Assembly: GCF_004010195.1 (NCBI RefSeq)
Contig: NC_057719.1
Span: 46,980,470 to 47,037,179, forward strand
Direction: 5' to 3'
Origin: Chiloscyllium plagiosum
Taxonomy: Eukaryota
Length of the DNA stretch: 56,710 nt
Part shown: one piece after another, positions 391 to 55,200 of the stretch
How positions within the stretch are numbered: the stretch's first letter is position 1
Layout: every line of letters starts with the position of its first letter
Translations under genes and position numbers: made by a program
The notes under the pieces: generated by a model
The model's input: the letters and a program-made list of their open reading frames with translations, nothing else
Databases searched by the model: none
Told to the model about the DNA's origin: nothing

Positions 391-1225
391 GACCATAAGT
401 TGTAAGAGTAGAAGAAGACCATTCAGCCCATCCAGTCTGCTCTGCCTTTCAATAAGATCGTGGCTAATCTGACAATCCACAACTCCACTTCTCCCTGTAA
501 TCTTTGATTCCCTTACTGATTAAATCTAATGACCCAGCCTCAATACTTCTATGGGATAAAGAACTCCACAGCTTCACTACCCTCTGAAAAAAGAAATTCC
601 TCCTCAAATCTGTTTTAAATGTGTGACCCTTTTATTCTGAAATTATGCCCTCTGGTTCTGGACTCACCACCAGGGGAAACAACTTTTGCACATCTAACCC
701 TGTCAAGTCCACTAAGAAACTTGTATGAGTCATGTATGGTCATCTTTCATTCTTCTAAATTCCTAAGAATACAAGTACAACGTACTCAACTTCTCCTTGT
801 CAGTCAATCCATCTATACCTGGTATCAACTAAGTGAAACTTCTATGGACTGCATCCAATATCAGTACATCTTTAATAAAAGCCAAATGCTGTAAATCAGA
901 AACAAAAACAGAAATTTCTGGAAAAGTTCAGCAGGTCTGGCAGCATTTGTGGAGAGAAATCTGAGTTAATGTTTTGGATCAAGGGACCTTTCCTCAGAAC
1001 TCTGAGGAAAGGTCACTTGACATGAAACATTAACTCTGATTTCTTTACACAGATGCTTCCAGAGCTACTGAGCTTTTCAAGAAATTCCTATTTTTGTTTC
1101 CAGTTTATCTTTATTTAAATAAGGTGCCCAAAACTGTTGACAGTAATCCAGCTGTGGTCTCACAAGTGACTTATAATGATTTAGCAAAACTTCCCTCCTC
1201 TAATACTCTATTTCTTTTGAAATAT
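391..1225 (-). mobile_element. Old CR1-type LINE 3' fragment, interrupted by a PLE-end palindrome at 874-1100
   Basis: Decayed CR1 3' end and ORF2 C-terminus pattern (ttcactaccctctg...aagaaattcctcctc...aaattatgccctctggttct). Sequence resumes as aaataaggtgcccaaaactg after the insertion. Confidence 0.65.
874..1100. mobile_element. Palindromic PLE-terminus insertion (family B), two inverted hammerhead-bearing arms
   Basis: Arms ~895-1000 and ~1001-1100 are imperfect reverse complements. Flanked by cagtacatcttt (862-873) and cagtttatcttt (1101-1112). Each arm starts CTGAGGA-AAGGTC-loop-GA..-(G/A)AAACATT-aact. Confidence 0.7.
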
Positions 1226-1279: not shown

Positions 1280-1501
1280 GTCCCTCCCACCCCAGTCTGA
1301 CCTATCACCCTCACCTTGACCTCTTTCCACCTATCACATTTCCGACGCCCCTCCCCCAAGTCCCTCCTCCCTACCTTTTATCTTAGCCTGCTGGACAAAC
1401 TTTCCTCATTCCTGAAGAAGGGCTTATGCCCGAAATGTCGATTCTCCTGTTCCCTGGATGCTGCCTGACCTGCTGCGCTTTTCCAGCAACACATATTCAG
1501 C
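1280..1501 (+). mobile_element. PLE 3'-terminal fragment (family A)
   Basis: Similar to the 3' end of the RT-bearing PLE at 26137-26401 (tgacctatcacc...ttcctga.gaagggctt.tgcccgaaa.gtcgatt.tcctg...gatgctgcctga). Confidence 0.75.
1408..1443 (+). ncRNA. Minimal hammerhead ribozyme motif (family A), one change in helix III
   Basis: attc-CTGAAGA-A-GGGC-TTAT-GCCC-GAAA-T-GTC-gatt. Confidence 0.6.
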
Positions 1502-3281: not shown

Positions 3282-3625
3282 TGGGGCTCAGTTGGTCATG
3301 CACTTTCCTCTGAGGCCGAACCTTATAGATTTAAGTCCCACTCCAGTTCTTGAGCTCAAACTTTCAAGGCTGATGCTCCAGAAGTAATTTCTTTTGAATG
3401 AAATGTTAAACTGAAGCCTGGTCTGCCCTCTCAGTAGGAAGGCTGGACAGGACTGTTAACTGTGATCCTATCTTCTTACAAAGGTTAACTGGATTCAAAA
3501 TGTTAACTCTGTTTTCTGTCTACAGATGCTGCCAGACCAGCTGTGTTTCTCCAGCACTCACTGTTCTTGTTTCAGGGATATTATCCCTGGAGTCCTGTCC
3601 CTTTAGCCCTTCATTAACCTCACAA
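3282..3625 (+). mobile_element. Ancient tRNA-derived Deu-domain SINE remnant (SacSINE1/AmnSINE-like), with a decayed family-B PLE end at ~3490-3575
   Basis: Head ggggctcagttggt...ctctgag...gatttaagtcccactccag. Deu-like core gaatgaaatgttaaactgaagcctggtctgccctctcag. Confidence 0.55.
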
Positions 3626-3661: not shown

Positions 3662-3785
3662 GTGAAGGGCTTTTGTCCAAAGCATCGATTTTTCCTGCTC
3701 CTCAGATGCTGCCTGACCCGCTGTGCTTTTCCAGCACCACTCTAATCTTGACTCTAATCTCCAGCATCTGCAGTACCCACTTCTG
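3662..3785 (+). mobile_element. PLE terminal fragment (family A), degenerate hammerhead
   Basis: tgaagggcttttgtccaaagcatcgatttttcctgctcctcagatgctgcctgacc...ctccagcatctgcag. Confidence 0.7.
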
Positions 3786-4256
3786 TATAGGAATTTATTG
3801 TGCACAATTGTTGGCCCTACAACACAACACAGACTACACTTTAAAAAGTAGGAGGTCTGGGGCTTTAGCCTTCCAATGGGCAATACTGGTGCGTATCAGC
3901 AGCAAAAAGGGGAGAAAAATTATTGAAGCTTATTTGTCTGAATTCTAGCAATGGTATTATACATTCCATTGAGTCACTTGACTCTATCAGTCATTATGAA
4001 AATAGTGAAATCAGATTAAAGTAGTTTTGCAGTTCCCAAGACTACATTGTTTACGCTTGACTTTAATGTCATACCATTGTGTTGCCTATCATGTTAGTGC
4101 TTCTATTGAAATGTACCACAGAGTGTCTTCTTCTTAAGTAATGTTAGAATAATTTTGGTTGCTGTTTCTTTAGAATTCCAACATTTAACTTAGAACAGAT
4201 TAAACAAAACCTTTTTTTACAGTTGCAAATTACAGTATTATTTTCTGATTATTTTC

Positions 4257-8164: not shown

Positions 8165-10060
8165 ATGTGTGTAGATGTAGAATATATGGATTTACAAAAG
8201 GCATTCAGCAAGGTGCCGCATCAATGTTACTACACAAACTAAGATCTCATGGTGTAGGAGATAACACAAAGAGTGAGGATTTAGCAAAAATAAGTCTGTG
8301 CCTACATTAATATGAATCATAACTAGTTGAAACTTCAGCATTGTTCCCTGTGGTACTGCACTATTTACAGCTTTCCATGTTAAAAATGATCTATTAACCC
8401 CAAACCACTGTTTCCTGTAAGTTAGCCAGTCTCTATCCAACAACCTGAACTCTTATGCATGAACTATAATGTGACATTTTATCAAATGCTTTTTGAAGCT
8501 TACGACACTGCTAAATTAGTGAAAACTGGGATATTTTCAGAAACAGCAATAAATGTTTAAAAATAATAGAGGGAAAAATTAAGAATATGAAAGAAAATTA
8601 TTAAGAAAAATAAAAAGACATTACAAGTTTCTAAAAGTTTAAGTCTCCCATGCCTTCAGAAATTCAAATACATTACTCTGACCAGTTCTCCTTTATTTAT
8701 CTGGCTTATTATATCCCCAAAAACCTCTATTATGAATGAATTCTATAATTTTCCCAAAAATAAAAAGTAACTGCTGGCCTAGTCTGCTGCTTTCTGGTCT
8801 TCCTCTTTTATAGATGTTAAAAGTCCACTTTTCTAATTCATTGGAAACTTTCCAAATTTGAGAAAATTTTATAGGATTTTAAGGTTCAACCAATCTCTAC
8901 CACCACCACTTTTAAGAGGTTAGGATACAGGCTGTTAGGTCCAGGGAACCTTTCAGCATTCCATTCCATTAGTTTTCATAGTATTTCTGCTCTATTGATT
9001 ATGATTTTAAGTCTCCCATGCCTTCAAACAAATACAAAATGTTTGTTTCAAAATGTCAGCCATTTACTTGTTTGCCAAAATTAACCTCCTAGTCTCAATC
9101 TCATAAACTTTTAGAAACTTGTAATGTCTTTTTATTTTTCTTAATAATTTTCTTTCATATTCTTAATTTTTCCCTCTATTATTTTTAAACATTTATTGCT
9201 GTTTCTGAAAATATCCCAGTTTTCACTAATTTAGCAGTGTCGTAAGCTTTTCTCTTTCAATTTAATCCAAAAATTAATTCCCTCAGTTAGCCACAAATGA
9301 TGCATTTTTCTCAATCTTTATTTTCAACAGAATATATTTTTGTTGAGGATTATGAATCATATTATTAGATCACTGCCACTGCTTCTCTGCCATTTTATCT
9401 TTTAAGCTATTTTCCAACTTTAGCCAATTTTGACTTCATTCCCTTTTAATGGCCTTTATTAAAGCTTAAGTCACTAGTTTTAAACCCATATTTCTCACCC
9501 TCAAACTAATTGTGAAGTTCTATTATGTGACAATCGCTCTTGCTTAGAGAATTTTTTCCTACGAAGTTATCAATTAATTCCATCTCATTAACATGTTTAA
9601 ATAGTTTGTTCTCTGAAAACCTTAGACTCTATTGTTCTGAAAAAACTGGCCCGAATTCACTGTAAGAATTCATCTTCCAGGTTACATTTATCAATATAAT
9701 TTATTTATTAAGATTACAATTGCCCATGACCTTTAAAGTTCTCTCTAAGCCCTACTTCTACCATTTGCCAGGACACTGATCCCAGTGCAGTTATATAGAC
9801 AATCCCAATGGTACAGCTCTCTCTTCAGCCAGCACTGGTGCCAGTGCCCCATGAATTGACCCACTCTCCGAAACCATCTTTTAGACAAATATTCAACTCT
9901 CTGACCTTATTTACCCTACACCAAGTTGCTTAGGTAGGAATCTAGAAATCATTAGCTTTACAGTTCTGCCTTTTAGTTTCACTCCTGGTTGCTCATATTC
10001 TTTCTTAGTCTATGTACTAAATAATGTTGTTACTACCCACCTGGACCACAGTAACAGGGA
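8165..10060 (-). mobile_element. Highly decayed CR1 LINE remnants (mostly minus; plus-strand RT piece at ~8165-8290)
   Basis: VDVEYMDLQKAFSKVPH on plus; WKAVNSAVPQGTML and KAFDKMSH on minus. AT-rich decayed continuation towards the 5' region. Confidence 0.55.
8496..9249. repeat. Perfect 146-bp inverted duplication (8496-8641 vs 9104-9249) plus 21-bp direct duplication (8638-8658 vs 9006-9026)
   Basis: Base-by-base reverse-complement identity read from the sequence. Confidence 0.95.
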
Positions 10061-12560: not shown

Positions 12561-13860
12561 TCAATTTTCTTGTGGAAGGTGACTCAGTAATTTATCCCAA
12601 TTTTTGACAACTTCTTCATTCTCCAATTTGATTTGAGGAATGTCCAATTCAGAATCCTCTGAACTTGGTTCTTCCTTCTGTGCTGCGATCATTAACACCT
12701 TCTCCTCTTGCTTTCCTTCCCTATCAAAATACTTTTTGAGCATATTCACATGACACACTCTCTGAGATTTCTTCCTGTCTGGAGTCCTTATCAAGTAGTT
12801 CACCTCACTCAATTTCCTCTCGATTTGATAAGGTCCGTGAAACCAGGCTTTTAAAAGCTCATCTGTTACAGGAAGTAACACCAATACCTTATCCCCAATG
12901 GCCAAAGTGCGAATTTGTGATTTCTTATCCACTTCCTGTTTCATTGTATGCTGTGATACTTTTAAATGCCAGCTAACCAGCTCTTCAGCTTTACAGCTCT
13001 ACTTAATCATTCTCTAAAATTTGGCAAATAGTCCAAACGTGTGGTCTCTGCATTCTGACTTATTAATTTCTTCTGAATCAATTTTAATGGTCATCTTACT
13101 TCATGCCCCAAAATTAATTCAAATGGATTGAATTTGGCCAATTCATTTGGTGCATCTCTGATCGCAAAAGTACCAAAGGAACTCCTTTATCCCAATCATC
13201 TGGGTAATCCTGACCATAAGCCCTCACCATGGTCTTTAATGTTTGATGCCATCTCTCTAGTGCTCCCTGTGACCCTGGATGATATGCAGTAGATTTGAAT
13301 TGTTTTATTCCCAAGTTATCCATAACCTCCTTGAATAGTTTGGATTTGAAGTTTGATCCTTGATCTGACTGGATCTCCACTGGTAGTCTGTTTCTAGTAA
13401 AAATTGTAAGTAATTCTTTTTAGCTGTGATGTTGCATAATGGATTGCCTCTGGAAATCTAGTCGACATATCCATGATTATCAATAGATACTTATTCCCAC
13501 CTTTGTTTGAGGTAGGAGACCTATGCAATCAATCAAGACTTGTGGAAGCCTCCTCAACTGTTGGAATTGGTATTAAAAGTGCAGGTGTTATTACTGCCTG
13601 TAGTTTTCCTATTAGCTGACATGTATGACACGTCTGGCAAAATTCAATCACATCCTTGTGTAGTCCAGGCCAGTAAAAATGTCTTTGTATTTTAGCATGT
13701 GTTTTTCTCACCCCTAAATGATCTCCAAGTGGTGGCTCAAGAGCCACTCGCAGCACCTCCATTCTATACCTACTGACAAAACAATTTGATGAATCTCTGT
13801 CCATTTCTCATCTGCTTGAATGTGTGATTGTCTCCATTTCCTCATAAAGACATCATTTGT
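12561..13860 (-). pseudogene. pol: integrase (zinc-binding, DDE core, GPY/F region) located upstream of RT
   Basis: DHLGVRKT..HFYWPGLHKDV..CQTCHTCQ, EIQSDQGSNF, AYHPGSQGALERWHQTLK and FHGPYQI. Confidence 0.88.
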
Positions 13861-18768: not shown

Positions 18769-18931
18769 TGACATTTCGGGCAAAAGTCCTTCATCAGGAA
18801 TAACGAAGGGCTTTTGCCCGAAACGTCCATTTTCCTGCTCCTTGGATGCTGCCTGACCTGCTGTGCTTTTACAGCACCGCTCTAATCTAGACTTTGGTTT
18901 CCAGCGTCTGCAGTCCTCACTTTTTGTCTAG
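18769..18931. mobile_element. Family-A PLE end with short inverted hammerhead arm
   Basis: 18769-18802 minus reads tattcCTGATGAAGGACTTTTGCCCGAAATGTC. 18804-18931 plus reads gaagggcttttgcccgaaacgtc...ctgcagtcctcactttt. Confidence 0.75.
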
Positions 18932-19259: not shown

Positions 19260-19351
19260 AGAAAGTGAGGACTGCAGATGCTGGACAGTCAGAGACAAAA
19301 TGTGTGGCACTGGAAAAGCACAGCAGGTCAGGCAGCATCCAATGAGCAGGA
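19260..19351 (-). mobile_element. 92-bp family-A PLE end with 9-bp TSD
   Basis: gcaatgagg at 19251-19259 and 19352-19360. Confidence 0.75.
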
Positions 19352-23582: not shown

Positions 23583-24289
23583 CTCTCTAATGCCAACCCA
23601 CTATTTTAATTCTGCAATGAAAAAAAGAAACTTTACTCTCAATGTTTAATATATATATACAACAACTGACAGCTTTGATCTACATGTTGGGATCCTTCTC
23701 TTTGGAGTGGTTTTGTGCACACCTCCAATTTTCCTCAAATCTGAACGATTTCCTTTGGGCAGTTCTTATTGAATATCCACATTGTGATTCTGAGGGATTC
23801 TGACCAGCAAGTGGGAGCTCATCAATGGAAATTCAGGGAAGCTGTAGTGGGATTGTCAGGTCAGTTACCATTAGCCATGCAGCTCGTGCAGCTCTCATCC
23901 CCACAGTGATCGATGACATCTCTCCCACCCACATCATGGCCGCTTCCACAGCCACTTCCGCCCCTCACAATTCCTCATGCACCACATGTGACATCACTTC
24001 CACCCCTTACATCATCGCTGATATCACACACTCAGTAATTTCCACCACCCCCCTCCCCCACTGCTGTGGTCGCCACCACTTCCGCCCTGACCTTTATCCC
24101 ACTCCGACCATGCATCAATGAATTTAATACGCGCTGTGTGTCGAACACTTCTTCCACCGCCTCAGAGCTTACTTTTACAATCAGGACTCCTGCCCACCTT
24201 CCGAGGACCCCTTCACTCGCCTCCAACACACCCCATCCACCTGGACACCCCGCGCTGGCCTATTACTCACCCTTGATCTCTTAATTTCC

Positions 24290-25786
24290 AATTGAAGCCG
24301 AGACATTAACTGCCTCAATCTGTCTACGCCCCTCCCCCACTCCAACCTCTCACCCTCACAATGCACTGCCCTCCACTCCCTCTGCTCCAATCCTGACCTC
24401 ACCATTAAGCCAGCAGATAAAAGGGGTGCAGTGGTAGTCTGGCGCACTTACCTCGTCACCACTGAAGCCAGACACCAACTCAAAGACACCTCCTCCTACC
24501 ACCCCCTTGACCATGACTCCACCCACCATCACCAAACCGTCATCTCCCAGACCATACATAACCTCATCACCTCAGGAGATCTCCCACCCACAGCTTCCAA
24601 CCTCATAGTCCGGGAACCCCGCACTGCCCAGTTCCACCTCCTTCCCAAGATCCACAAGCCTGACCACCCTGGCCGACCCATTGTCTCAGCATACTCCTGC
24701 CCCACCAAACTCATCTCTACCTACCTCAACACTGTCCTATCCCCCAGTCTAGGAACTCCCCACATACGTTCAAGACACCACCCATGCCCTCCACCTCTTC
24801 CAAGACTTCTGTTTCCCCGGCCCCCAATGCCTCATTTTCACCATGGATATCCAATCCCTCTACACCTCCATCTGCCATGACCAGGGTCTCCAAGCCCTCC
24901 ATTTCTTCCTCTCCCAATGTCCCCAACGTTACCCTTCTGCCGACACTCTCATTTGTTTGGCCGAACTGGTCCTCACCCTCAACAATTTCTCCTTTGAATC
25001 CTCCCACTTCCTCCAGACCAAAGGGGTAGCCATGGGCACACGTATGGGCCCCAGCTATGCCTGTCTATTTGTTGGCTACATAGAACAGTTGATCTTCCGT
25101 AATTACACGGGCACCACTCCCCACCTCTTCCTCCGCTACATTGATGACTGTATTGGCACCACCTCGGGCTCCCGCAAGGAGGTTGAGCAATTCATCAACT
25201 TCACCAACACATTCCACCCTTACCTTAAATTTACCTGGACCATCTCTGACACCTCCTTCCCCTTCCTGGACCTCTCCATCTCCATTAATGATGACCGACT
25301 TGACACCGACATTTTTTACAAACCCACTGACTCCCACAGCTACCTGGATTACACCTCTTCCCACCCTATGTCCTGCAAAAATGCCATCCCGTATTCCCAA
25401 TTCCTCCGCCTCCACCGTATCTGCTCCCAGGAGGACTAGTTCCACCACAGAACATACAAGATGGCCTCCTTCTTTAGAGACCACAATTTCCCTTCTCACG
25501 TGGTTAAAGATGCCCTCCAACACATTTCGTCCACATCCCGCACCTCCGCCCTCAGACTCCACCCCTCCAAACGTAACAAGGACAGAACCCCCATGATGCT
25601 CACCTTCCACCTTACCAACCTTCGCATAAACCAAATCATCTGAGGACATTTCCGCCACCTCCAAACAGACCCCACCACCAGGGATATATTTCCCTCCCCA
25701 CCCCTTTCCGCCTTCCGCAAAGACGTTCCCTCCGGTGACTACCTGGTCAGGTCCACGCCCCCCAACAACCCACCCTCCCATCCTGG
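24290..25786 (+). pseudogene. PLE reverse transcriptase (frameshifts; premature TAG at 25437-25439)
   Basis: ORFs 24431-24880, 24843-25439 and 25461-25643 are consecutive pieces of one PLE RT/thumb. Confidence 0.85.
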
Positions 25787-26136
25787 NNNNNNNNNNNNNN
25801 NNNNNNNNNNNNNNNNNNNNNNNNNNNNNNNNNNNNNNNNNNNNNNNNNNNNNNNNNNNNNNNNNNNNNNNNNNNNNNNNNNNNNNNNNNNNNNNNNNNN
25901 NNNNNNNNNNNNNNNNNNNNNNNNNNNNNNNNNNNNNNNNNNNNNNNNNNNNNNNNNNNNNNNNNNNNNNNNNNNNNNNNNNNNNNNNNNNNNNNNNNNN
26001 NNNNNNNNNNNNNNNNNNNNNNNNNNNNNNNNNNNNNNNNNNNNNNNNNNNNNNNNNNNNNNNNNNNNNNNNNNNNNNNNNNNNNNNNNNNNNNNNNNNN
26101 NNNNNNNNNNNNNNNNNNNNNNNNNNNNNNNNNNNN
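25787..26136. other. Assembly gap (350 N)
   Basis: N run. Confidence 1.
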
Positions 26137-26269
26137 CCTTCCCCCACCCTCCTCCCTGACCTATCACCTTCATCCCCACCTCCATTCATCTATTGTACTC
26201 TATGCTACTTTCTCCTCACCCCAAACCCTCCTATCATTTATCTCTCCATCCTGCAGGCACCCTGCCTCT

Positions 26270-26305
26270 ATTCCTGATGAAGGGCTTTTGCCCGAAACGT
26301 CGATT
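26270..26305 (+). ncRNA. Minimal hammerhead ribozyme motif (family A), intact core
   Basis: attc-CTGATGA-A-GGGC-TTTT-GCCC-GAAA-C-GTC-gatt. Palindromic ACGT helix III; predicted cleavage after 26301. Confidence 0.75.
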
Positions 26306-29300
26306 TTCCTGCTCCTCGGATGCTGCCTGAACTGCTGTGCTTTTCCAGCACCACTCTAATCTAGAATCTGGTTTCCAGCATCTGCAGTCATTGTTTTTAC
26401 CCTGTTACCATCCAGCAGAGTTGCTAGTGACACTGTCGTCATTTTATTGAAAATAAATCAACCAACAAAGCAGCCTCAATGCTGGATACTTTTAAGATGG
26501 AAACAAGAAGTTGCTTTTAGTGAGCCCTTTAAATAATAATGGACATAACAGTTTCACAACTTGTGTAGCCCATGATATGCAAGCTAGGTTGAAGAGTGCC
26601 AATTAACATGAGAATCATCTTGGGATCATAACTGTGTCATGGACCTCATATTTCAATATTTAATTAAACTCCTGTTCTATTTCCAGTGGGATCTTAAACT
26701 GAGGCCACACAGAATCAGAGAAGGTTGATGGTCAGTCATGAGCGTTTCAATTTTAATCTTGCTTTGGCTCTGTTCAATTCATTGCTAACAACTAACCCCA
26801 ATCTCTTAAACAAGGCAGGTGAACATAGATCACCATCTACAAATTGACCAGTGTCTACTTCTTAGCTTGAACAGCGCCAGTAATCCTTAAACTGATTATA
26901 AGTGTGAAAATGAATGAGCCTAAAGCCGTTAAATGAACTGGATTGGCACAATCTAAAAATCTACAGCAACGTAACTTTCAGATCTCAGCTGGTCTCAGTG
27001 GTCCTCAGAGATTGGGAATACAGCCAGAATTCCTGCTCCTGATTGCTATCCCCCTCTGAAAATGCACACGTGAATGATAGATGAGGTCAGGCTGTTGATC
27101 AATACATTCAAATGGGTTGCCAACACTCACCAATGAAGAATAGTTACTGAACTGAGATACAAGAAAGACACTGCATATGAAGTTATATATGGGTTTAATT
27201 TACTCCATTAAGGAGAGGAGATCAAAGGGCAAACAGGAAAAGATGGATAGAGAAAAAGTTAATTTTCAGTCAAGGGTCAATAGGCTGTTTGTAAACATTA
27301 ATGCACTTGTCAGCCTGATGTTAGTGTAACTCATGTGATTACTTTCAATTCTATTGTAATGAAGAGTGTGACTTATTCACCTACATTTGTGAATAGAGAC
27401 AGTGTAAAATTCAGGAAAAAGTTTTACAACTTTGCCTAAAAACATTAGGATGTGTCCATGTGTCTCTTTTATTGATTTTGATAAAATTCCATTAATTTGT
27501 CCTATCAAGTCCAATTTTACATTTTTAAATTCTTTTATTTTACATGCTGTTTCACCTGCCATCGCACTGTAGATAAAGGGTGCATTGTCTGTGTAGACTA
27601 TAACTGCTTCGGATACCAAGGCAAGGCCATCGATCAGATAGCAGGTGCTAATTTGTTTGGGCAAGCAGACAGAATAAATTTGTTGATATTTTACTGGAAG
27701 GCTGACTAAGAGCTATCCAAACAATGTGCATTGCTAAACATAATGGAGAATTTTGGAACTGGACTAATTCAAAGCTCCAATCCCAAGAGGTACAGAAAGA
27801 ACACTTTGACCACTAAAATGAGGCCATTTTAAGTACTTCTTGTCCTCACTGGGTTTAAAAACAAATATAAACAAAAATAAACTCTAAGATTAGTTGGTGT
27901 TCTTATAAAATTCTTTTCCCTGGAAATATTTACAAAATTAAATCATTTGCATTTTGCTCCTTGACTTTCACTTCCGTACCTGGGAGTAGTCAACAACTGA
28001 AATTATCTTGTTTATTTCACTAGTCTTGGCATTTTAATTTCAGTAAAGCTTGCTGGAACTACTTTAGCGATGATGAAGGACAATTATATTACTTTTGTCT
28101 TCTCTGTTCTCCCTTCAGTCAGTGCTGTACCTGAAGAATCATGGTCAAAATCAGAAACTGCCAAGCCCGTGCAAAGTTGAGGTATTGTGGGAGTAGCAAC
28201 TTAAATCAAAGGCATCCCATCCATGGTGCAGTATAATGGCTGAATAATCAATAGACTGCTTGCTTACCATTGTCAGCTATAGTGTGCTCACAGGTTTTCA
28301 CAGCTAATTTGAAGTCTTTACTTTGTTGCTCAAAAAGAGACATATCCAACTGGGGGAAAAGACATACTTCATTAATCTTAAAATGTCTCTGTATTTTTCA
28401 GGCTTCTAATGTATTTGTTTTTTGCTGATAACTTAATGGTTAACATATTTAGATAGCTCTGGTCATTACATTGTTAATGTCATGCTCTGGGACTTGAGCA
28501 AGCTTTTCCCCAGCTAAAGAAACATAAATGTTCAGCTGTGATAGAAGTTTGTGAGTTCTCCTGACATAAATTAAGCTGATATCATCAGAGGACTATAAAA
28601 CTGATTTATTATAAATACTGTTCTCATTTGTTTACAGCTTAAATTCTTTGGTTCTGGTCAATTAGCACATTAGCCATCTCTCAAATTGACAGGTGCTTAA
28701 AAGCATATTACACAAGCTTTCGGGCGTAAAAACACAAAGGAGCAGAACGAAAGTATTTTGCAGAGAAACCAGATATAATGGAGAGAAAATAACCTGCTGC
28801 TACCTCTATGACTGAAACATTTATGCCAAATGAGCACATTTACTTTCTCATAAAGGCAGAAGAGCTATTCTTAAAAAGAAATCTTCACCAATTTCCTTTG
28901 TTGTAAGCCAATTTTTTTGGGAGGAAGGGTGGTGTGGGGAATGGTTATTTTAAAAGCTCGAAGAGTTATCTCATTTTTGAGGATTTGAGATGTGAGACTC
29001 TTAAAGGTTCTTTCTCCACCCACCTTTCCACCTATCACCTACTACCAGTTGTGTGAGGGCCAGCAGAGGTTGAACTCTGTAGATAAAGATCATTTGGGAA
29101 CTAGTACTAGAATCTTAATGCTGATTAAATTAAACTCTCGTTCAATGAACTGGCAAGAGGCCACTTTTTTTTCATTGCACAATGGAATTCAGTGAAAAGT
29201 TAAGGCCAGGCAGCACTGCCTGTCATTTTGTTTTGGTTGCAAAATCACCTTATACTGTACCCTGAGTGAAAGGACTGCATATACACATCTTATTTATTCA

Positions 29301-30924
29301 GCTGGATCCATCAGGGCCCTGTTCCAACATATAAACAGATTTCATAAGTGGTTGCGTTTTCCCCTCCCCAGTGAGATTACCACTTAGGAAAGAGTGTGAT
29401 CGAATTAATGGAAGGCCAGAAATTCCACTTTTAAGGCCAGCCCTGATAGGAACCACATTGCCATTCACTAAAAATGTAGATGAAAAAGGTGATGGATACA
29501 AAAAGAGGCTGACAGTTATTTGACCTCAGGTCTATTATCTCATTATTGAAGCTATGAATCTAAAACATCTGGGTTAGCATTTTGAAACCTTACTCCTTTC
29601 AATCAGAAACTAATTATCTGGCCAATATAGATTAAACAGTAATCCACAATCTACAACGCATGAACTTTTCCCTTTAAGTTGTTTTGAATGCAATTTTTCT
29701 TGTCAGTAGTTTCAACGACGTGTTAAGAGAAGTTAAATATATGCGATTAGAAATACATTCATCACAACTGGATTTGGTACTGAGTCACACAAAGTCAGAA
29801 ATGTATGGTTTACCTGCCCCTGAGGTGTGTCATAATGTGTCCAAACTGGTTGATTTAAAACAAATATAAAACTAGCCACTCTGTGCGACTTAGCACTGGA
29901 GTGTGGGAATTAAACAATTAAAGGAATTCAGAATAGAAAGGGAAAGCAACAACAAAGTAAATTCATACAGCACATCTAATATAATTTTTTTTAATATATA
30001 TATGTATAATGGAAAGGACATGGCCGCTTTGATATAGAACAAGATTTTAGAAAACATAACCAAAACAGGCATTTTTAAGAATGGTTTTAAAGGAGAGGGA
30101 GAGGACAGCTGATGATTTCTGCAAGAAGATGCATGTCTCTAACAGAGTACTCATTAACAGATCGTTGTCTCTTAAAGTTGCACTTTCACTGCCTTGCACT
30201 GCAATATGTTCCAAACTTCTGTCCGGCATTGTTTTAGCGTCCTGTGCTTGCACAGCATTGCTAACCAAAGTAAACTGGAAAAGGACGTTCTTGGACATTG
30301 GCATTAGCTGCTTTGAAGACAGAACAACATAGAGGTAAGCATCAGGACAATCCTTACTTTAAGGATTCCTGCGCGATGGCTGAAAGAGGCATAACATTAG
30401 TAAAATAATTTAAGCTTTTAAACGTTGCTTGTCACTATTGCTAGAACCCTTCCACGTCTACATTTAAATAAGTGACAAATGGTTCTGTCCAATAGAAATC
30501 TTATAAAATCATATCATATTACATTTAATACTATTGGTTCTAGATGGCCATGTAAATCCTAATTCCCTCAATGAACAAGCAAATAGAAAATAGATATAAC
30601 CATTCCATTATGACTATTAATATAAGTGCATTAAATTCTCTTTCAAAAAAGATAACATCTACAATAGTCATAAACAAAATCTAGTAATTTTTGTGCCAGC
30701 ATTCTCTTAGGTGTCTAACCATGGCCTCCTTCCTTCTATGCTAGTCCTCCAGCTATTTGCAACCTAAAGGTTAAACCTCATGTATGCACTACTGCAGATG
30801 ACAAATGGCTTTTAAGCCAGTCTGAGAGTGTAATATCTGACAGGTGTGACTTTGGAGGTTATAGGCAGCAGCAAGATAGATTTTTCTGTCATTGCAGGAA
30901 TCAATGAATCATATTGGACTTCAT

Positions 30925-31458
30925 TAAAAATCACACAACACCAGGTTATAGTCCAACAGGTTTATTTGGAAGTACAAGCTTTTGGAGCGCTGCTTCTTCA
31001 TCAGGTAGCTATGGAGCAGGATCATAAGACACCGAATTTATAGCAAAAGATCACAGTGTCATGCAACTGAAACAATGTATTGAATAAACCTAGATTGTTG
31101 TTAAGTGGTTGCAGGTTTTGGTTCAATACTATGTAAATCCCAGAACATCTTTCCAGTCACATTCGCAAAGTAACTTGAGGTTTTATAAAAAAAGGTGACA
31201 TCTCAGCTCAGACAATGCATTAAAGGTGTGAGGTTAGACTCTATCTGTATCCCAGTCTTGAGTCAGACTGGTTCTATTTCCAAAGTCTGAATTTATAAGA
31301 TGTTACATGTTTTGACTGCCTGCATTGATTGCCTGGAGATTGTGTGCTTTTTAAACAAAATAGAATGTATCTGCAATTGCAATTCTGCAAGTGAAAATTC
31401 ACCCCATAGAATTATTCTTGTGTGTGTACATGAGGGAGCGAGAGCGAGAGAGAGAGAG

Positions 31459-31494
<36 letters not shown>

Positions 31495-31782
31495 TGTGTG
31501 TGGGAGAGAATGAGGGAATGCATGTGAGTGTGATTATGAGTGTGAGTGCATGTGAGCACGTGTGTTTGCATGTGTGCGTGCTTAGCAGAGTGTGTGCATG
31601 AGTGTGATGGAGTATCAGCTTCTGAGAGGGTGTGTGCGTGGGTGTGAGTGTGAGGGCTGTGTATGTGTCTGAGAGAGAGAGCATGTGTATGAGGACTTTT
31701 ATATGTATATGGGGTACTTTTCACACCTCTGATGCATTGTCTGAGCTGAGATGAGATTTTATGAAAAAAGATCACAAGTTAC
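30925..31782 (-). mobile_element. Family-C PLE 3' region with (GA)n/(GT)n tracts and a short inverted piece (~31722-31781 vs ~31170-31230)
   Basis: Homologous to 38485-39300 and to the reverse complement of 39800-40458. Degenerate hammerhead at 30973-31007 (minus). Confidence 0.75.
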
Positions 31783-32322: not shown

Positions 32323-32535
32323 TAGGCAAAAGTGAGGACTGCAGATGCTGGAAACCAGAGTTTAGATTAGAGTGGCACTGGAAAAGCACAGCAGGTCAGG
32401 CAGCATCCAAGGAGCAGGAAAATCAATGTTTCGGGCAAAAGCCTGATGAAGGGCTTTTGTCCTAAACGTTGATTTTCCTGCTCCGCGGATGCTGCCTGAC
32501 CTGCTGTACTTTTCCAGCACCACTCTAATCTAAAC
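32323..32535. mobile_element. Palindromic family-A PLE-end insertion with perfect 15-bp TSD
   Basis: cacaggaaactgaca at 32308-32322 and 32536-32550. Arms invert at ~32442. Confidence 0.88.
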
Positions 32536-36383: not shown

Positions 36384-36923
36384 ACTGAGCTGAGAGGCAC
36401 GTTCTCCAAATAAGGGGTAGGCCATTTAGGACTAAGACAAGAGTAAGTTCGTCACTCAAAGTTCTTTTTACTCTCCACAGATGTTGCAGGATTTCATTGG
36501 GATGAAGATGCTTCGACTGGTTATCTGACATTGAGAGTTGGAATAAAGGAAACTTGACAATGGGGTATCTCAACTGGAATGGACTAATATACAATTAGAA
36601 ATGAAAAGATATTAGTTTGAAGAAAAACAGCAGATAATGAAGATTAAGGAAAGAAAATATAGAGACAGAGTTTAGGAAATTTGAAAATGAAAGGGAGGTA
36701 TTTCCTGATGCTTCAAGTTATGAGGAGCATGGAGAGGGTAAATAGGCAAGTTCTTTTCGCTCAGCTGGTGGAGTCCAGAATTAGAGAGCATAGGTTTAAG
36801 CTGAGGGGGGTAAAGATATAAAATGGACCTAAGGGGCAACTTTTTTATACAGAGGGTGGTGTGTGTATAGAATGAGCTGTCAGAGGAAGTGTTGAAGGCT
36901 AGTATGATTACAACATTAAAAAG

Positions 36924-37127
36924 CTGAAAATGTGTTGCTGGAAAAGTGCAGCAGGTCAGACAGCATCCAAGGAGCAGGAGATTCGACGTTTCGGGCATTC
37001 CTGAAGAAGGGCTCATGCCCGAAACGTCGATTCTCCTGCTCCTTGGATGCTGCCTGACCTGCTGCACTATTCCAGCAACACATTTTCAGCTCTGATCTCC
37101 AGCATCTGCAGTCCTCACTTTCTCCTT
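36924..37127. mobile_element. Palindromic family-A PLE-end insertion with 13-bp TSD (1 mismatch)
   Basis: caacattaaaaag (36911-36923) and caacattataaag (37128-37140). Arms invert at ~36996. Confidence 0.85.
36997..37032 (+). ncRNA. Minimal hammerhead ribozyme motif (family A), intact core
   Basis: attc-CTGAAGA-A-GGGC-TCAT-GCCC-GAAA-C-GTC-gatt. The inverted arm reads GTC-gaat, fully complementary to attc. Confidence 0.75.
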
Positions 37128-38448: not shown

Positions 38449-38533
38449 TGTGGAGGTGCTGGCGTTAGACTGGGATGGACAAAGTTAAAGATCACACAAC
38501 ACCAGGTTATAGTCCAACAGGTTTAATCGGAAG

Positions 38534-38568
38534 TACTAGCTTTCGGAGCATCGCTCCTTCATCAGGTG
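38534..38568 (-). ncRNA. Minimal hammerhead ribozyme motif (family C), intact core
   Basis: cac-CTGATGA-A-GGAGC-GAT-GCTCC-GAAA-G-CTA-gta; palindromic AGCT helix III. Confidence 0.72.
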
Positions 38569-39454
38569 GTTGTGGAGCAGGATCATAGGACACAGAATTA
38601 TAGCAAAAGATCATAGTATCGTGCAACTGATGTGATATATTGAACAAACCAAAATTGCTGTTAAATCTTTCATCTTTTAAATTGGGTGCAGGTTTCGATT
38701 CATTAATATGAAAATGACAGAACTTCTTTCCAGTTGCATTCCTAAGATGACTTAAGGTTTTATTAAAAAAACGTTGTCAGCTCAGACAATGCATTAAAGG
38801 TGTGAGGTTAGAGTCTGTCTGTACCCCTATCTTGAGTCAAACTGGCCCTATTTCCAAAGTAGGAATTTATAAAATGTCACATGGATTGACTGCCTACAGA
38901 TTGTATACTTTTTGAACAAAAAGAATATATCTGCAATTACATATTCGCCCCATAGACTTGTGTGTGTGTGCATGCATGTGAGGAAAAGAGAGTGTGTGTG
39001 TGTCTCTGTGTGTAAAATGTCACATGGATTGACTGCCTACAGATTGTATACTTTTTGAACAAAAAGAATATATCTGCAATTACATATTCGCCCCATAGAC
39101 TTTTGCGTGTGTGTGTGTGTGCGCATGCATGTGAGGAAAAGAGAGTGTGTGTGTGTGTCTCTGTGTGCATGTGAGTGAGTGTGTGTGCATGAGTGTGATG
39201 GAGTATATGCCTGTGAGAGGGTGTGCGCATGGGTGTGAGTGCGGGGCTGTGTGTGTGTGTGTGTGTATATGTGTGCCGGAGAGACAGCGTGTGAATGAGA
39301 TAGGATCTTTGTGAGTGTGTGAGTATATAAGAGTGTGTGTGCAAGTGTGCTTGTGTGTGAGTGTAGTGGAGTCACCTGTAGTGTGACATGAACCCACGGT
39401 CCTGTTTGAGGCCATCTTCATGGGTACTGAACATGGCTATCAGCCTCTGCTCAG

Positions 39455-39760
39455 GCATGTATACGGCAGGTGCTCATGTGACTCGGCCAACGTTGTCTAT
39501 CCCATTTGTGGCAGGCAAGGATGTCCTGAGACATGGTACATTGCTGAGACAAAGCAGACACCACGGCAACACGCCAGACAGGGGAACACTTCAGCGGTCA
39601 GGGTCATTCGGCCTCCGATCTTCGGGTGACCATCCTCCAAGGCAGACTTTGGAATCAGCAACAACGCAGAGTGGCCGAGAGGACGCTGATAGCCAAGTTC
39701 GGTACCCATGGGGATGGCCTCAACTGGGACCTTAGGTTCATGTCACACTACTGGTGACCC
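39455..39760 (+). pseudogene. GIY-YIG endonuclease remnant of a PLE
   Basis: GRCSCDSANVVYPIC..CPETWYIAETKQT, then after a deletion EHFSGQGHSASDLRVTIL..LIAKFGTHGDGLN. Confidence 0.8.
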
Positions 39761-40374
39761 CACTGCACTATACACTCTCTCACACACACATACACATACA
39801 TTAACACACAAACTCTTACATACTCACCTCACCCTCTCTCATACACATGCTCTCACCTAGGCACGCGTGTGTATACACACACGTGCACACACTCTCATAG
39901 ACATATACTCCATCACACTCATGCACACAATCAATCAAGCGCGCGCACACACACACACACACACAAGTCTATGGGGCGAATATGCATTTGCAGAATAGTT
40001 TTTGCAAATAGTATGTTTTGTTCAAAAAGCACACAATCTGTAGGCAGTCAATCCATGTGACATTTTATAAATTCCTACTTTGGAAAATAGAGCCAGTCTG
40101 ACTCAAGATTGGGATACAGACAGACTCTAACCTCACACCTTTAGTGCATTGTCTGAGCGGAGATGTCACCTTTTTTTGTAAAGCCTTTAGTTATCTCGGG
40201 AATGTGACTTGAAAGAAGTTCTGCGGTTTATATGTTAATGAATCAAAAGCTGCAATCCAATTTAAAAGATGAAAGATTTATAGCAATCTAAGTTTTTTCA
40301 ATATATTGCATTAGTTGTCTGACACTATGATCTTTTGCTATAAATTCTGTGTCCTACAGTCCTGCTCCACCAGC

Positions 40375-40409
40375 TACCTGTTGAAGGAGCAGCGCTCCGA
40401 AAGCTTGTA
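40375..40409 (+). ncRNA. Hammerhead motif (family C), core mutated to CTGTTGA
   Basis: tac-CTGTTGA-A-GGAGC-AGC-GCTCC-GAAA-G-CTT-gta. Confidence 0.55.
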
Positions 40410-40699
40410 CTTCCAAAACCTGTTGGACCATAAGCTGGTATCGTGTGATTTTTAACTTTGAAAAATTACGGTTAAAAGATGATTTTCGTTGCCACCTCAG
40501 CCTTTCCATTTGACTGGGAATAATGTGGAATAGTAATATGGAGTTGAATGTTTCAGTCAGTTTTGAAGTGACTGAATTTTTGATTCGTGATTTAAGGGCG
40601 ATTTTCACACATCAAAGTTGGGGGTGCTTAACAACTGAAGCATGCTTTCAGGCATTCTAGATTTGCATTGGCAGTCATAGATGCCAGCAGTTCAACCTC

Positions 40700-50892: not shown

Positions 50893-52275
50893 ATATAGTC
50901 CAACAGCATAGAAGAAGGCCCTTCGGCCCACCATTTCCATGGCGAGCAACAAACCACACTGATCCTATATGCCTGCACATTGACCATCGCTTACGATGCA
51001 CTGACATTTTAAGCTCTTCTCCAGCACCCTCTCCTTCCCTATTTGTATCAGTCCTCTGGGTGAAAAAGGGTTTCCCTCAGATCTCCTCGAAACCATTTAC
51101 TTCTCACCTTAAATCCATCCCCTCTGGTCTCAGACACGTCAGCCATGGAAAAAGGGATTCTCAAGATCTATCCTGTCGATGTGGGTCTACCCAAGCAGAT
51201 TCCACCCGCCATTTCCTGCTCCAAGGAAAACAAACCCAGCCTATCCATCCTCTCCTCATAACGGAGACTTTTTTGTGTCCCAGGCAACATCTTGGTGAAT
51301 TTCCTATGTATCGTCTCCAGTGCAATCATATCTGTCCAATAGTATGGCGACCAGAACTGTACACCATCCATGAGCTAAGCAATGGTTTATAAAGTTGTAA
51401 TAAGACTTGATTGCTCCTAATTTCCAAGCCCTGGCTAATTAAGACAGCATTCCATCTGCCTTCTTCTGTCTATCTGGACCTACCCAAAGGTCCCTTCATT
51501 CCTTAGTGCTCCCTCGGGACCCACCATTCATTGTGTATATCCTTCTCTTATTAAACCTCATGAAATGCATCACCTTACACCTATCGGAAGTAAGTTCCAT
51601 CTGCCATTTTTCTGCTCAGTTTACCAGTGGGTCAATATCAGACTGCAGCCTGAAACCATCGTCCTCACGATCAACAATGCCACTAATTTTCATGTCATCT
51701 GCAAACTTATAAATTATACCTTCAACATTCACATCCAAGTTGCTAATGTACATAACGAACAGCAAGATTCCCAACACCAGTCCCTGTGGTATATCCCTAA
51801 TTACAGGCTTCCAATCACAAAAACAACCCTCCATCACCACTTTTTGCTTCCCATTTCTAAGCCAAACTTCAATCAAGTTTTCCAACAACAGAGATGCCTT
51901 GAACTCTTTCCTTAAGGACCAGCCGTTCATGTAGAGCCTCATCAAAGGCCTGACTGAAGTTCATGTAAATCACACCAACTGCACTATCCTCATCAATGTA
52001 ATTAGTCATCACTTCACAGTGGTAGTGTCCCTACCCCAGACCAGGATGCCAGCGTTCAGGTCCCACCTGCTCCTGAGAGCTGTAATAACATCTCTGAACA
52101 GGTTGATTACAAAGATAGGTTAAATTAGTCAGACAGGCGCTCCCACTAACTAATCTATGCTGACTATCCCTGACCAATCCCAGCCTATTCAAGTGTTGAT
52201 CAATCCTGTCCCTCAGGGATTTTCCAATAGTGCCCTAACCACTGAGATCAGATTAACTGTCCTGTAATTTCCTAT
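50893..52275 (-). mobile_element. Older CR1 LINE, with a short SINE-like insert at ~52015-52115
   Basis: DIPQGLVLGILLF, YKFADDMKISG and VQFWSPYY. Confidence 0.8.
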
Positions 52276-52289
52276 TACAGAGAAACCAC

Positions 52290-55200
52290 CAGCTCAGCCG
52301 GAGCGGGAGAGGGAGCGGGAGCGGATCGAGGTCAGTCGGAGCGGGAGAGGAAGAGGGAGCGGATCGAGGTCAGTCGGAGCGGGAGAGGGAGAGGGAGCGG
52401 ATCGAGGTCAGTCGGAGCAGGAGAGGGAGAGGGAGCGGATCGAGGTCAGNNNNNNNNNNNNNNNNNNNNNNNNNNNNNNNNNNNNNNNNNNNNNNNNNNN
52501 NNNNNNNNNNNNNNNNNNNNNNNNNNNNNNNNNNNNNNNNNNNNNNNNNNNNNNNNNNNNNNNNNNNNNNNNNNNNNNNNNNNNNNNNNNNNNNNNNNNN
52601 NNNNNNNNNNNNNNNNNNNNNNNNNNNNNNNNNNNNNNNNNNNNNNNNNNNNNNNNNNNNNNNNNNNNNNNNNNNNNNNNNNNNNNNNNNNNNNNNNNNN
52701 NNNNNNNNNNNNNNNNNNNNNNNNNNNNNNNNNNNNNNNNNNNNNNNNNNNNNNNNNNNNNNNNNNNNNNNNNNNNNNNNNNNNNNNNNNNNNNNNNNNN
52801 NNNNNNNNNNNNNNNNNNNNNNNNNNNNNNNNNNNNNNNNNNNNNNNNNNNNNNNNNNNNNNNNNNNNNNNNNNNNNNNNNNNNNNNNNNNNNNNNNNNN
52901 NNNNNNNNNNNNNNNNNNNNNNNNNNNNNNNNNNNNNNNNNNNNNNNNNGTCGGAGAGGGGGCGGATCGAGGTCAGTCGGAGTGGGAGCGGATCAAGGCC
53001 ATTCGAAGAGGAAGCTGATCGCGGTCAGTCGGAGTGGGGACGGATCGCGGTCAGTCGGAGTGGGAGCGGATCGCGGTCAGTCGGAGTGAGAGCGGATCGC
53101 GGTCAGTCGGAGTGGGAGCGGATCGCGGTCAGTCGGAGTGGGAGCGGATCGCGGTCAGTCGGAGAGGGGGAGCGGATCGAGGTCAGTCGGAGAGGGAACG
53201 GATCGAGGTCCGTTGGAGAGGGAGGGGATCAAGGTCATTCGGAGTGGAAGCTGATCAAGGTCAGTCGGAGAGGGGACGGATAGAGGTCAGTCGGAGAGGG
53301 AGCGGATCGTGGTCAGTCGGAGAGGGAACGGATCGTGGTCAGTCGGAGAGGGAACGGATCGAGGTCAGTCGGAGAGGGAACAGATCGAGGTCAGTCGGAG
53401 AGGAAGGGGATCAAGGTCATTCGGAGTGGAAGCTGATCAAGGTCAGGCAGAGAGGGGACGGATAGAGGTCAGTCAGAGGGAGCGGATCGAGGTTAGTCAG
53501 AGGGAGCGGATCGAGGTTAGTCAGAGTGGGCGCTGATCATGGTCAGTCGGAGAAGGAGCAGATCGAGGTCAGTCGGAGAGTGAGTGGATCGAGGTCAGTC
53601 GGAAAGAGAGGGAGTAGATTGAGCCCAGTCAGAGCGGGAGTGGGAAATGGAGCGGATCAAGGTCAGTCGGAGAGGGAGGGGATCAAGGTCATTCGGAGTG
53701 GAAGCTGATCAAGGTCAGGCAGAGAGGGGACGGATAGAGGTCAGTCGGAGAGGGAGCGGATCGTGGTCAGTCGGAGAGGGAGCGGATCGAGGTCATTCGG
53801 AGTGGGAGCGGATCAAGGTCAGTCGGAGAGGGAATGGATCGAGGTCAGTGAGAGAGGGAGGTGATCAAGATCACTCAGAGCGAGTGGATCGAGGTCAGTC
53901 AGAGAGATAACAGATCGAGGTCAGTCAGAGAGATAACAGATCGAGGTCAGTCAGAGAGGGAGCAGATCGAGGTCAGTCAGAGAGCGAGTGGATCAAGGTC
54001 AGTCGGAAAGAGAGAGGGAGCAGATTGACCCCAGTCTGAGTGGGAGTGGGAAATGGAGCGGATGGAGCGGATCGCGGTCAGTCGGAGTGGGAGCGGATCG
54101 CGGTCAGTCGGAGTGGGAGCGGATCGCGGTCAGTCGGAGTGGGAGCGGATCGAAATCATTCACAGAGGGAACAGATCGAGGTCAGTCGGAGAGGGCACTG
54201 ATCAAGGTCATTCGGAGTGGAAGCTGATCGAGGTCAGTCGGAGAGGGGGCGGATCGAGGTCAGTCGGAGAGGGAGCGGATCGAGGTCAGTCGGAGAGGGA
54301 GCGGATCGAGGTCAGTCGGAGAGGGGGCGGATCGAGGTCAGTCGGAGTGGGAACGGATCGAGGTCAGTCGGAGTGGGAATGTATCGAGGTCAGTCGGAGT
54401 GGGAATGTATCGAGGTCAGTGAGAGAGGGAGGTGATCAAGATCAGTCAGAGCGAGTGGGACGAGGTCAGTCAGAGAGGGAATGTATCGAAATCAGTCGGA
54501 GTGGGATCGGATAGAGGTCAGTCGGAGAGGGAGTGGATCGAGGTCATTCACAGAGGGAACAGATCGAGGTCAGTCGGAGAGGGAGTGGATCAAGGTCAGT
54601 CGGAGTGGGCGCTGATCGAGGTGAGTCGGTGCGGGAGGGGATCAAGGTCATTTGGAGTGGAAGCTGATCAAGGTCAGTCGGAGAGGGAATAGATCGAGGT
54701 CAGTTGGAGAGGAAGGGGATCAAGGTCATTCGGTGTGGAAGCTGATCAAGGTCGGGCGGAGTGGGGACCGATCGAGGTCAGTCGGAGAAGGAGCAGATCG
54801 AGGTCAGTCAGTGAGCGAGTGGATCAAGGTCAGTCGGAAAGAGAGAGGGAGCAGAATTGAGCCCAGTCTGAGTGGGAGTGGGAAATGGAGCGGATGGAAC
54901 GGATCGAGGTCAGTCGGAGAGGGAGCGGATCGAGGTCAGTCGGAGAGGGAGCGGATCGAGGTCAGTCGGCGAGGGAGCGGATCGAGGTCAGTCGGCGAGG
55001 GAGCGGGTCGAGGTCAGTCGGCGAGAGAGCGGATCGAGGTCAGTCGGAGAGGGAGCGGATCAAGGTCAGTCGGAGGTGGGTCGAGGTCAGTCGGACAGGG
55101 AATGGATCGAGGTCAGTCGGAGAGGGACCGGATCGAGGTCAGTCAGAGAGAGAGAGGATCGAGGTCCGTCGGAGAGAGAGCGAATCGAGGTCAGGCGGAG

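Follow-up and report, generated by a model that had tools for sequence, protein, structure and literature searches.

Minimal type I hammerheads in the terminal repeats of mostly decayed Penelope-like elements of the shark Chiloscyllium plagiosum

The window analysed here, a stretch of 56,710 nucleotides of the Chiloscyllium plagiosum genome (NCBI RefSeq assembly GCF_004010195.1, contig NC_057719.1, positions 46,980,470 to 47,037,179 of the forward strand), is eukaryotic, repeat-rich DNA of 41% GC with three N runs. It contains a hammerhead motif downstream of the remnant of a Penelope-like element (PLE) reverse transcriptase (RT), in the following arrangement.

24140-25786 (+): 5'-truncated PLE RT and thumb remnant (Pfam RVT_1, E 1e-7), with a frameshift near 24745 and a stop at 25437-25439
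25787-26136 (no strand): 350-N gap at the expected place of the linker and GIY-YIG domain; the homolog P0004 aligns to 25787 and continues into linker and endonuclease
26137-26269 (+): C-rich 3' UTR of the element, 5' of the hammerhead; 61% homology to 1292-1407, covered by many genomic copies
26270-26305 (+): complete minimal type I hammerhead of family A, core 26274-26301 (46.5 bits, E 2e-10 with the covariance model R1 described below)
26306-26401 (+): downstream end module, ending at 26354 or, with an optional tail, near 26401; loose-end piles at 26354, 26389 and 26401

No other copy in the window still bears an RT. The RT is 86-90% identical to the Chiloscyllium punctatum proteins P0002-P0004 and 65-76% identical to other shark and ray proteins. 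Its stop codon is absent from other copies in 125 of 127 reads of one direction. The initial annotation attached family A to a PLE RT; 350 Ns lie between the two and the RT is broken; because none of the listed contigs spans the gap, the link is drawn from order and orientation only. In P0004 (86% identical), a CX4CxxC linker precedes the GIY-YIG domain, and of the 71 homologs (among 120 listed) that extend as far as the YIGET motif, 67 have the linker zinc finger. According to PMC8557442, a CX2-5CxxC zinc-finger linker marks Neptune or Nematis and not Poseidon. The parent elements likely belong to the Neptune clade.

Three further features lie elsewhere in the window. Segments 8496-8641 and 9104-9249 form a 146-nt inverted repeat in AT-rich DNA, 100% complementary and 462 nt apart, which is possibly an assembly artefact or a local inversion. 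A fragment of the C-terminal part of an LTR-retrotransposon integrase occupies 12564-12998 (-) (Pfam PF22938, E 4e-13), and a long array of purine-rich 26-nt (and 38-nt) tandem units, interrupted by a 500-N gap, fills 52250-56710.

In the standard hammerhead numbering, which is used throughout, the 5' side of the motif at 26270-26305 (+) comprises the helix I 5' strand (26270-26273), CUGAUGA (26274-26280) and an extra A (26281). Helix II consists of four G-C pairs between GGGC (26282-26285) and GCCC (26290-26293), and the 3' side runs through GAAA (26294-26297) and the palindrome ACGU (26297-26300) to C17 at 26301. The predicted cut site falls between 26301 and 26302. In the complete A copies helix I is formed by a C-G and a U-A pair, followed by a U.U mismatch and an A-U pair, so that just two pairs are contiguous. 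The attc/gaat stem originally assigned to it occurs in no complete copy, GAAT being confined to the minus arm 36932-36997, which lacks the 5' half. The helix III sequence ACGT holds for the copies at 26270 and 36997 but not for the one at 1408, which has AUGU. From the predicted cut to the end of the element the distance is 53 or ~100 nt in A (ends at 26354 and 26401) and 53-88 nt in C, in agreement with the annotated position of the motif close to the 3' end.

All ten motif sites of the initial annotation were found at about the coordinates it gave. They belong to three repeat families, A, B and C, whose remaining copies are listed below; numbers with a sign in the A entries give the 5' end relative to 26270.

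1292-1492 (+): sister-subfamily A copy; hammerhead 1408-1443 with intact core and AUGU replacing ACGU
3663-3787 (+): A stub, 5' end inside the core (+8); 15-nt target-site duplication (TSD)
18769-18929 (both): head-to-head A pair; minus arm 18769-18802 from -1, plus arm from 18805 (+9); 11-nt TSD
19260-19351 (-): A stub, 5' end just beyond the hammerhead (+37); 9-11-nt TSD
32325-32535 (both): head-to-head A pair; minus arm from 32443 (+13) with tail, plus arm from 32442 (+3) with G12 changed; 15-17-nt TSD
36919-37127 (both): head-to-head A pair; minus arm from 36997 (+19), plus arm from 36997 (0); 8-13-nt TSD
892-1107 (both): head-to-head B pair; arms from 997 (minus) and 1002 (plus), 0-3 nt before CUGA; neither motif complete, TSD doubtful
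3480-3573 (+): decayed third B stub (75% over 71 nt), 5' end inside the motif
30924-31645 (-): C copy; hammerhead near 30973-31007, G12 and G10.2 changed
38449-39447 (-): C minus arm with tail; complete hammerhead 38534-38568, CUA triplet, predicted cut between 38537 and 38536
39400-40460 (+): C plus arm without tail; endonuclease remnant 39456-39772, hammerhead 40375-40409 with A6 changed

Only four of the ten listed sites hold complete motifs (CUGA at 1412+, 26274+, 37001+ and 38565-), one of them (1412+) with AUGU; the third is the plus arm of 36919-37127, with its hammerhead at 36997-37032. The core had been described as constant, whereas it is changed at four sites: G12 is replaced at 32442+, in the B minus arm and at 30973-, and A6 at 40375+. 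G12 and G8 are the catalytic residues of the hammerhead (PMC6155905). Stems are broken at two further sites, with an A.C mismatch in helix II at 18769- and, in the B plus arm, a broken helix II and no palindrome. The proposed compensatory changes in the stems are seen between families but not within them, where changes are pair-breaking or wobble and, as sequence changes, are consistent with CpG decay.

Family B was put forward as a hammerhead family with matching stems, and no complete B copy was found to sustain this. The palindrome is gone from both arms of 892-1107, and the B copies are without a coding remnant. All three (892-1107 and 3480-3573) have A at position 10.1 in place of the expected G; the family may represent an atypical variant, or its linker may have two bases. 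Family C has the palindrome AGCU and a helix I of 2-3 pairs, and its arms 38449-39447 and 39400-40460 constitute one insertion with an 11-nt TSD. Its reported attachment to a GIY-YIG remnant stands, the hammerhead being contiguous with the PLE-type endonuclease remnant at 39456-39772 (profile iE 4.6e-6; tblastn 1.5e-4). No RT is left in C; Pfam does not recognise the endonuclease remnant, and a homolog search with a 56-aa fragment of it returned 0 among 16 candidates.

Five of the insertions are head-to-head (B at 0.9-1.1 kb; A at 18.8, 32.4 and 37 kb; C at 38.4-40.5 kb). TSDs of 8-17 nt flank the A and C pairs and two solo stubs, and that of the B pair is at chance level. Four A insertions and the C pair have TSDs of 11-17 nt, for which the chance of at least 11 nt is 1.2% with 40-nt flanks and 7% with the wider C flanks. 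At the 32.4, 37 and 38.4-40.5 kb pairs the tail is present on just one arm. Judged by this layout, the combination of inverted pairs, one-sided tail and TSDs is the published PLE insertion pattern: endonuclease-positive PLEs are likewise described as showing 5' truncation, a head-to-head copy, a palindromic junction and a one-sided tail (PMC3846280; PMC8557442). The same two sources give TSDs of 8-10 bp, whereas those in the window reach 15-17 nt. The window also differs from published PLE insertions in that the inversion junctions of four pairs lie inside the hammerhead and the arms are just 35-130 nt long. As a single case, the arm 18769-18802 (-) extends from 1 nt before helix I to at most 3 nt past the predicted cut, approximately the span of a 5' cleavage product, with its end blurred by overlap with the TSD.

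The motif was evaluated with a descriptor composed of the core, a helix II of at least 3 bp, a palindromic helix III and a helix I of at least 2 bp. It matches the window four times, at the four complete motifs (CUGA 1412+, 26274+, 37001+ and 38565-), versus a mean of 0.025 and a maximum of 1 in 200 dinucleotide shuffles. The outside set consists of 80 metagenome-contig loci chosen by RT similarity alone (the best 80 of 500 confirmed), for which helix II and helix I of at least 3 bp each and the palindrome were required. In these loci both stems and the palindrome accompany 13 of 25 sequence-only core matches, compared with 0 of 36 in 20 shuffles. The 13 matches represent seven families; 11 are on the RT strand and the other two are inverted copies. 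For the covariation set seven of the 13 were retained, one per family (L008, L010-, L020, L029 and both L035 were dropped as duplicates), and family B was excluded because it has no complete copy. In the seven outside families 94.6% of 56 cells are paired and 20 cells are changed on both sides, against 21-46% paired in slid controls, and none of 500 shuffles reaches this level. Inclusion of shark A and C brings the count to 75 of 81 paired cells, which 0 of 20000 shuffles equal (shuffle mean 48); both cell counts are inflated, the rows having been chosen by a pairing descriptor, and the unbiased test is the comparison of 13/25 with 0/36. The core columns CUGA, GAAGG and CGAAACGU are invariant in the seven outside families while the stems covary, and they are kept in the complete A and C copies.

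The covariance model R1 was built from the seven outside families only, and every one of its training rows has ACGU. With E values from 2e-10 to 1e-4 it recovers six A sites, and the 80 loci yield 30 sites at E<0.01, of which seven are training rows; its scores for C (E 0.7-0.8) and B (E 2.4) are at chance level only. Of the claim that three families in the window covary, the part that holds is that pairing is kept across A, C and the seven outside families, but only two of the three, A and C, have a complete copy. Covariation is real across the class and in the comparison of A with C, but could not have been demonstrated from three families of a single window. No Rfam hammerhead family is matched at E<=5 in the window or at E<=10 in 26240-26340. 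Matches to Rfam microRNA families were rejected, being located on inverted repeats and far under gathering scores. Inverted pairs, with a hammerhead on each strand, are also present in the related elements of the metagenome contigs L005, L010, L035 and L048; L005, L008 and L030 have NUU triplets, as do two C copies.

The 5' ends of the copies are concentrated at the motif. Eight of the ten A copies start at -1 to +37 of 26270, seven of these upstream of the cut; under memoryless truncation the chance of eight of ten in any 39-nt span is at most 0.0035, with the qualification that pair arms are not independent. Starts at or in the motif are also seen in all three B copies and in none of the three C copies. 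The largest 5' loose-end piles among those listed are at 26270-26272, and of the nine opposite-strand joints listed, seven have their start at 26270 or 26272. Depth in two DNA runs, from two organisms, stays level at 0.06-1.6 million across the 1 kb upstream, apart from one bin at 3.3 million, and then rises at the motif from 1.1-1.2 to 10.6-12.1 million; the RNA run shows an 8-fold rise there. This step is confounded by sister subfamilies that diverge exactly upstream of 26270, the loose-end consensus ending like the sister type and about one third of the DNA depth at 26306 being sister type. Neither the direct joints nor the copies in the window are affected by this confound. The sister A subfamilies are 88% identical from 26270 onward versus 61% immediately upstream, which suggests that the end module was under selection during the elements' active period; the same module also contains the tail.

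Two further classes of joint were observed. Opposite-strand joints from 26270 to 26303-26312 connect the start of helix I to positions shortly beyond its 3' strand, the arrangement expected if a cDNA folded back through helix I. Joints from 26352/26354 back to 26270 suggest rare head-to-tail tandems of an 85-nt module.

Templates with the 5' half of the motif preserved were uncut, and the starts of the A copies suggest that uncleaved RNA beginning at helix I was copied. As a tentative account of this boundary, to which we assign clearly less than even odds, we favor run-off, by which the many solo hammerheads of shark genomes would have arisen: the PLE transcript would start at the initiator-like 26270, reverse transcription would begin internally 85-130 nt downstream, and uncut RNA would be copied to its 5' end, often with joining by fold-back or to a second copy. 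An internal RT start is known for the anole element (PMC11167929). Stalling or fold-back at the structure is the alternative to run-off as the cause of the boundary. A26270 fits the initiator-like pattern in both A subfamilies, and a YYANWYY-type pattern occurs three times in 140 nt of the A 3' UTR (about every 45 nt). By eye, such a match 3 nt before the core is present in L003, L005, L008 and L030 and absent from L007, L010, L011 and L025, so that the outside families appear to lend the initiator idea little support. Our literature search found no paper that states a 5' boundary of stubs at helix I.

Folding predictions and RNA reads bear on whether the motif cuts. In predicted monomers the probability of helix I is 0.03-0.04 for A and 0.01-0.04 overall, and at 26270 the core is predicted to pair with the GUC region instead. 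The palindromic helix III is not formed in the predicted two-molecule fold, calculated with a program that does not model the tertiary core. The pair at 36919-37127 has a predicted hairpin of -137 kcal/mol over the motif, and the construct 36990-37040, proposed earlier for cleavage assays, would misfold. Head-to-head pairs cannot supply a dimer partner because their arms are on opposite strands, and they form long hairpins. On the same strand, the closest copies that have a CUGA box lie at distances of 6.2 kb, with G12 changed, and 10.7 kb. In the RNA run X21, of which ~2% was read, 3788 reads fall on 25300-26460, 38 of them at >=99% identity, and both orientations are represented over the motif (827 and 1087 reads). 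No pile of RNA ends is found at the predicted cut in the 3788 reads; being single-cell polyA data, they are poorly suited to revealing 5' ends. Run X22 contributed 0 reads. The strand ratio in X21 is ~4:1 over the RT region 25300-25500 and near 1:1 over the hammerhead.

Taken together, we consider it probable (about 0.85) that these are minimal type I hammerheads in the terminal repeats of PLEs, likely of the Neptune clade, now present mostly as decayed stubs and head-to-head insertions, and that their intact parents likely cut as dimers, slowly and probably with the help of a protein. Helix III would be built by pairing between the 4-nt palindromes of two motifs on one tandem PLE transcript, with cutting after position 17. 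Cleavage in the intact parents would likely be slow and would probably be aided by the element's protein. We infer cleavage in the shark families by analogy, dimer and protein-assisted cutting being known from other PLEs. Minimal hammerhead monomers are reported as inactive and dimers as weakly active (PMC4209133), one of nine Xenopus dimers cleaved (bioRxiv 10.64898/2026.07.22.740005), and cleavage of the anole Poseidon requires the element protein and is dispensable for insertion in vitro (PMC11167929). The in vivo role of PLE hammerheads is described as still open (PMC8557442). The initial annotation regarded the window's copies as real or recently functional ribozymes; this is made doubtful by the broken RT, the damage to six of the ten listed motifs, the inverted pairs in hairpins and, as a weak test, the missing RNA-end pile. 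We infer that the window copies no longer serve the element as ribozymes, and a function at this locus is unlikely.

One rival explanation is that the motif has lost its cutting activity in the shark families and persists as a structural or promoter signal, acting in protein binding, as a transcript start or as an RT boundary. The very short helix I and the inhibitory predicted fold would suit it, as would the uncut templates of the seven of eight short A copies that start upstream of the cut. Insertion of the anole element without a need for cleavage (PMC11167929) and the success of Naiad PLEs without canonical hammerheads (PMC8557442) point the same way. Against this, the core stays invariant in seven outside families while the stems covary and is kept in the complete A and C copies, and related minimal motifs cut in vitro (PMC4209133; PMC11167929). 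We regard the loss of cutting in favor of such a signal as unlikely.

Somewhat less probable still is that the stubs of 85-130 nt form a non-autonomous family of their own, resembling SINEs or retrozymes and copied from its own promoter, instead of being truncated products of full elements. The stubs have their own TSDs, depth rises ~8-11-fold at the hammerhead (two DNA runs and one RNA run), and the joints from 26354 to 26270 (15 contigs in X1, 7 in X9) suggest tandem units. However, their 5' ends are scattered from -1 to +37 and differ between the arms of one pair, stubs of both subfamily types occur and match the ends of long copies, and the window has no same-strand tandem.

It is very improbable that the host retains one or more copies as active ribozymes for its own transcripts. 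The motifs at 26274+, 37001+ and 38565- are complete with a perfect palindrome and related copies are transcribed in both orientations, but the copies show decay at CpG sites, a same-strand partner is no nearer than 6-11 kb and the motif at 37001 is buried in a hairpin. Furthermore, only 38 of 3788 RNA reads are at least 99% like the locus, with no end pile, and no host exon was identified among the 21 ORFs scanned. That the motifs are chance matches in repeats is a negligible prospect: B and C are non-significant under R1 and Rfam gives no match, but the descriptor counts against shuffles, the 80-locus test, the pairing counts and the R1 scores oppose it and for A already refute it.

Minimal hammerheads in the pLTRs of metazoan PLEs (Xena, Poseidon and Neptune) were described by Cervera and De la Pena in 2014 (PMC4209133), and by sequence A and C correspond to their definition. 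The annotation of a minimal type I PLE hammerhead with a palindromic, intermolecular helix III agrees with the published definition and with the descriptor, covariation and R1 tests. A and C share with the published motifs the type I topology, the lack of loop 3, the extra base after position 9, G10.1-C11.1 and the palindromic 15.2-16.2, and the window as a whole shares the presence of several families per genome and the predominance of solo copies with some opposite-strand pairs (PMC4209133). Helix I of A, with two contiguous pairs, falls short of the 4-5 bp found in Schistosoma motifs and resembles the 2 bp of D. virilis (PMC4209133). The host here is a cartilaginous fish, a group not named in the text of that paper or in the two of its supplementary files that were searched.

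The Poseidon element of Anolis carolinensis (Frangieh et al. 2024, PMC11167929) resembles the shark elements in having a hammerhead in the pLTR, two alternative 3' ends (the tail) and no RNA-seq reads ending at the cut. It is intact and experimentally tested, in contrast to the broken shark copies, and the zinc-finger linker of A's close homologs is absent from Poseidon. Non-LTR retrozymes, reported in one chondrichthyan genome (bioRxiv 10.64898/2026.07.22.740005), are, like the copies here, hammerhead-bearing derivatives of PLE pLTRs. They need at least two tandem units, whereas the window has only solo and inverted copies; no tandem units with complete hammerheads were found in it, which places these copies outside the retrozyme definition. 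Our literature search turned up no report devoted to PLE hammerheads of sharks; some may already be listed by Lunse et al. (RNA Biol 14:1499) or in supplementary tables. A whale shark paper does no more than list Penelope.

The finding adds a cartilaginous fish example to the class described in 2014. The sharp boundary at helix I provides a testable handle on the role of the PLE hammerhead and on the start of the transcript, and the rare tandem 85-nt units would be natural substrates for dimer assays. If run-off is true, the hammerhead would mark the start of the transcript and remain mostly uncut in transposition, and the excess of solo minimal hammerheads over full elements would be accounted for.
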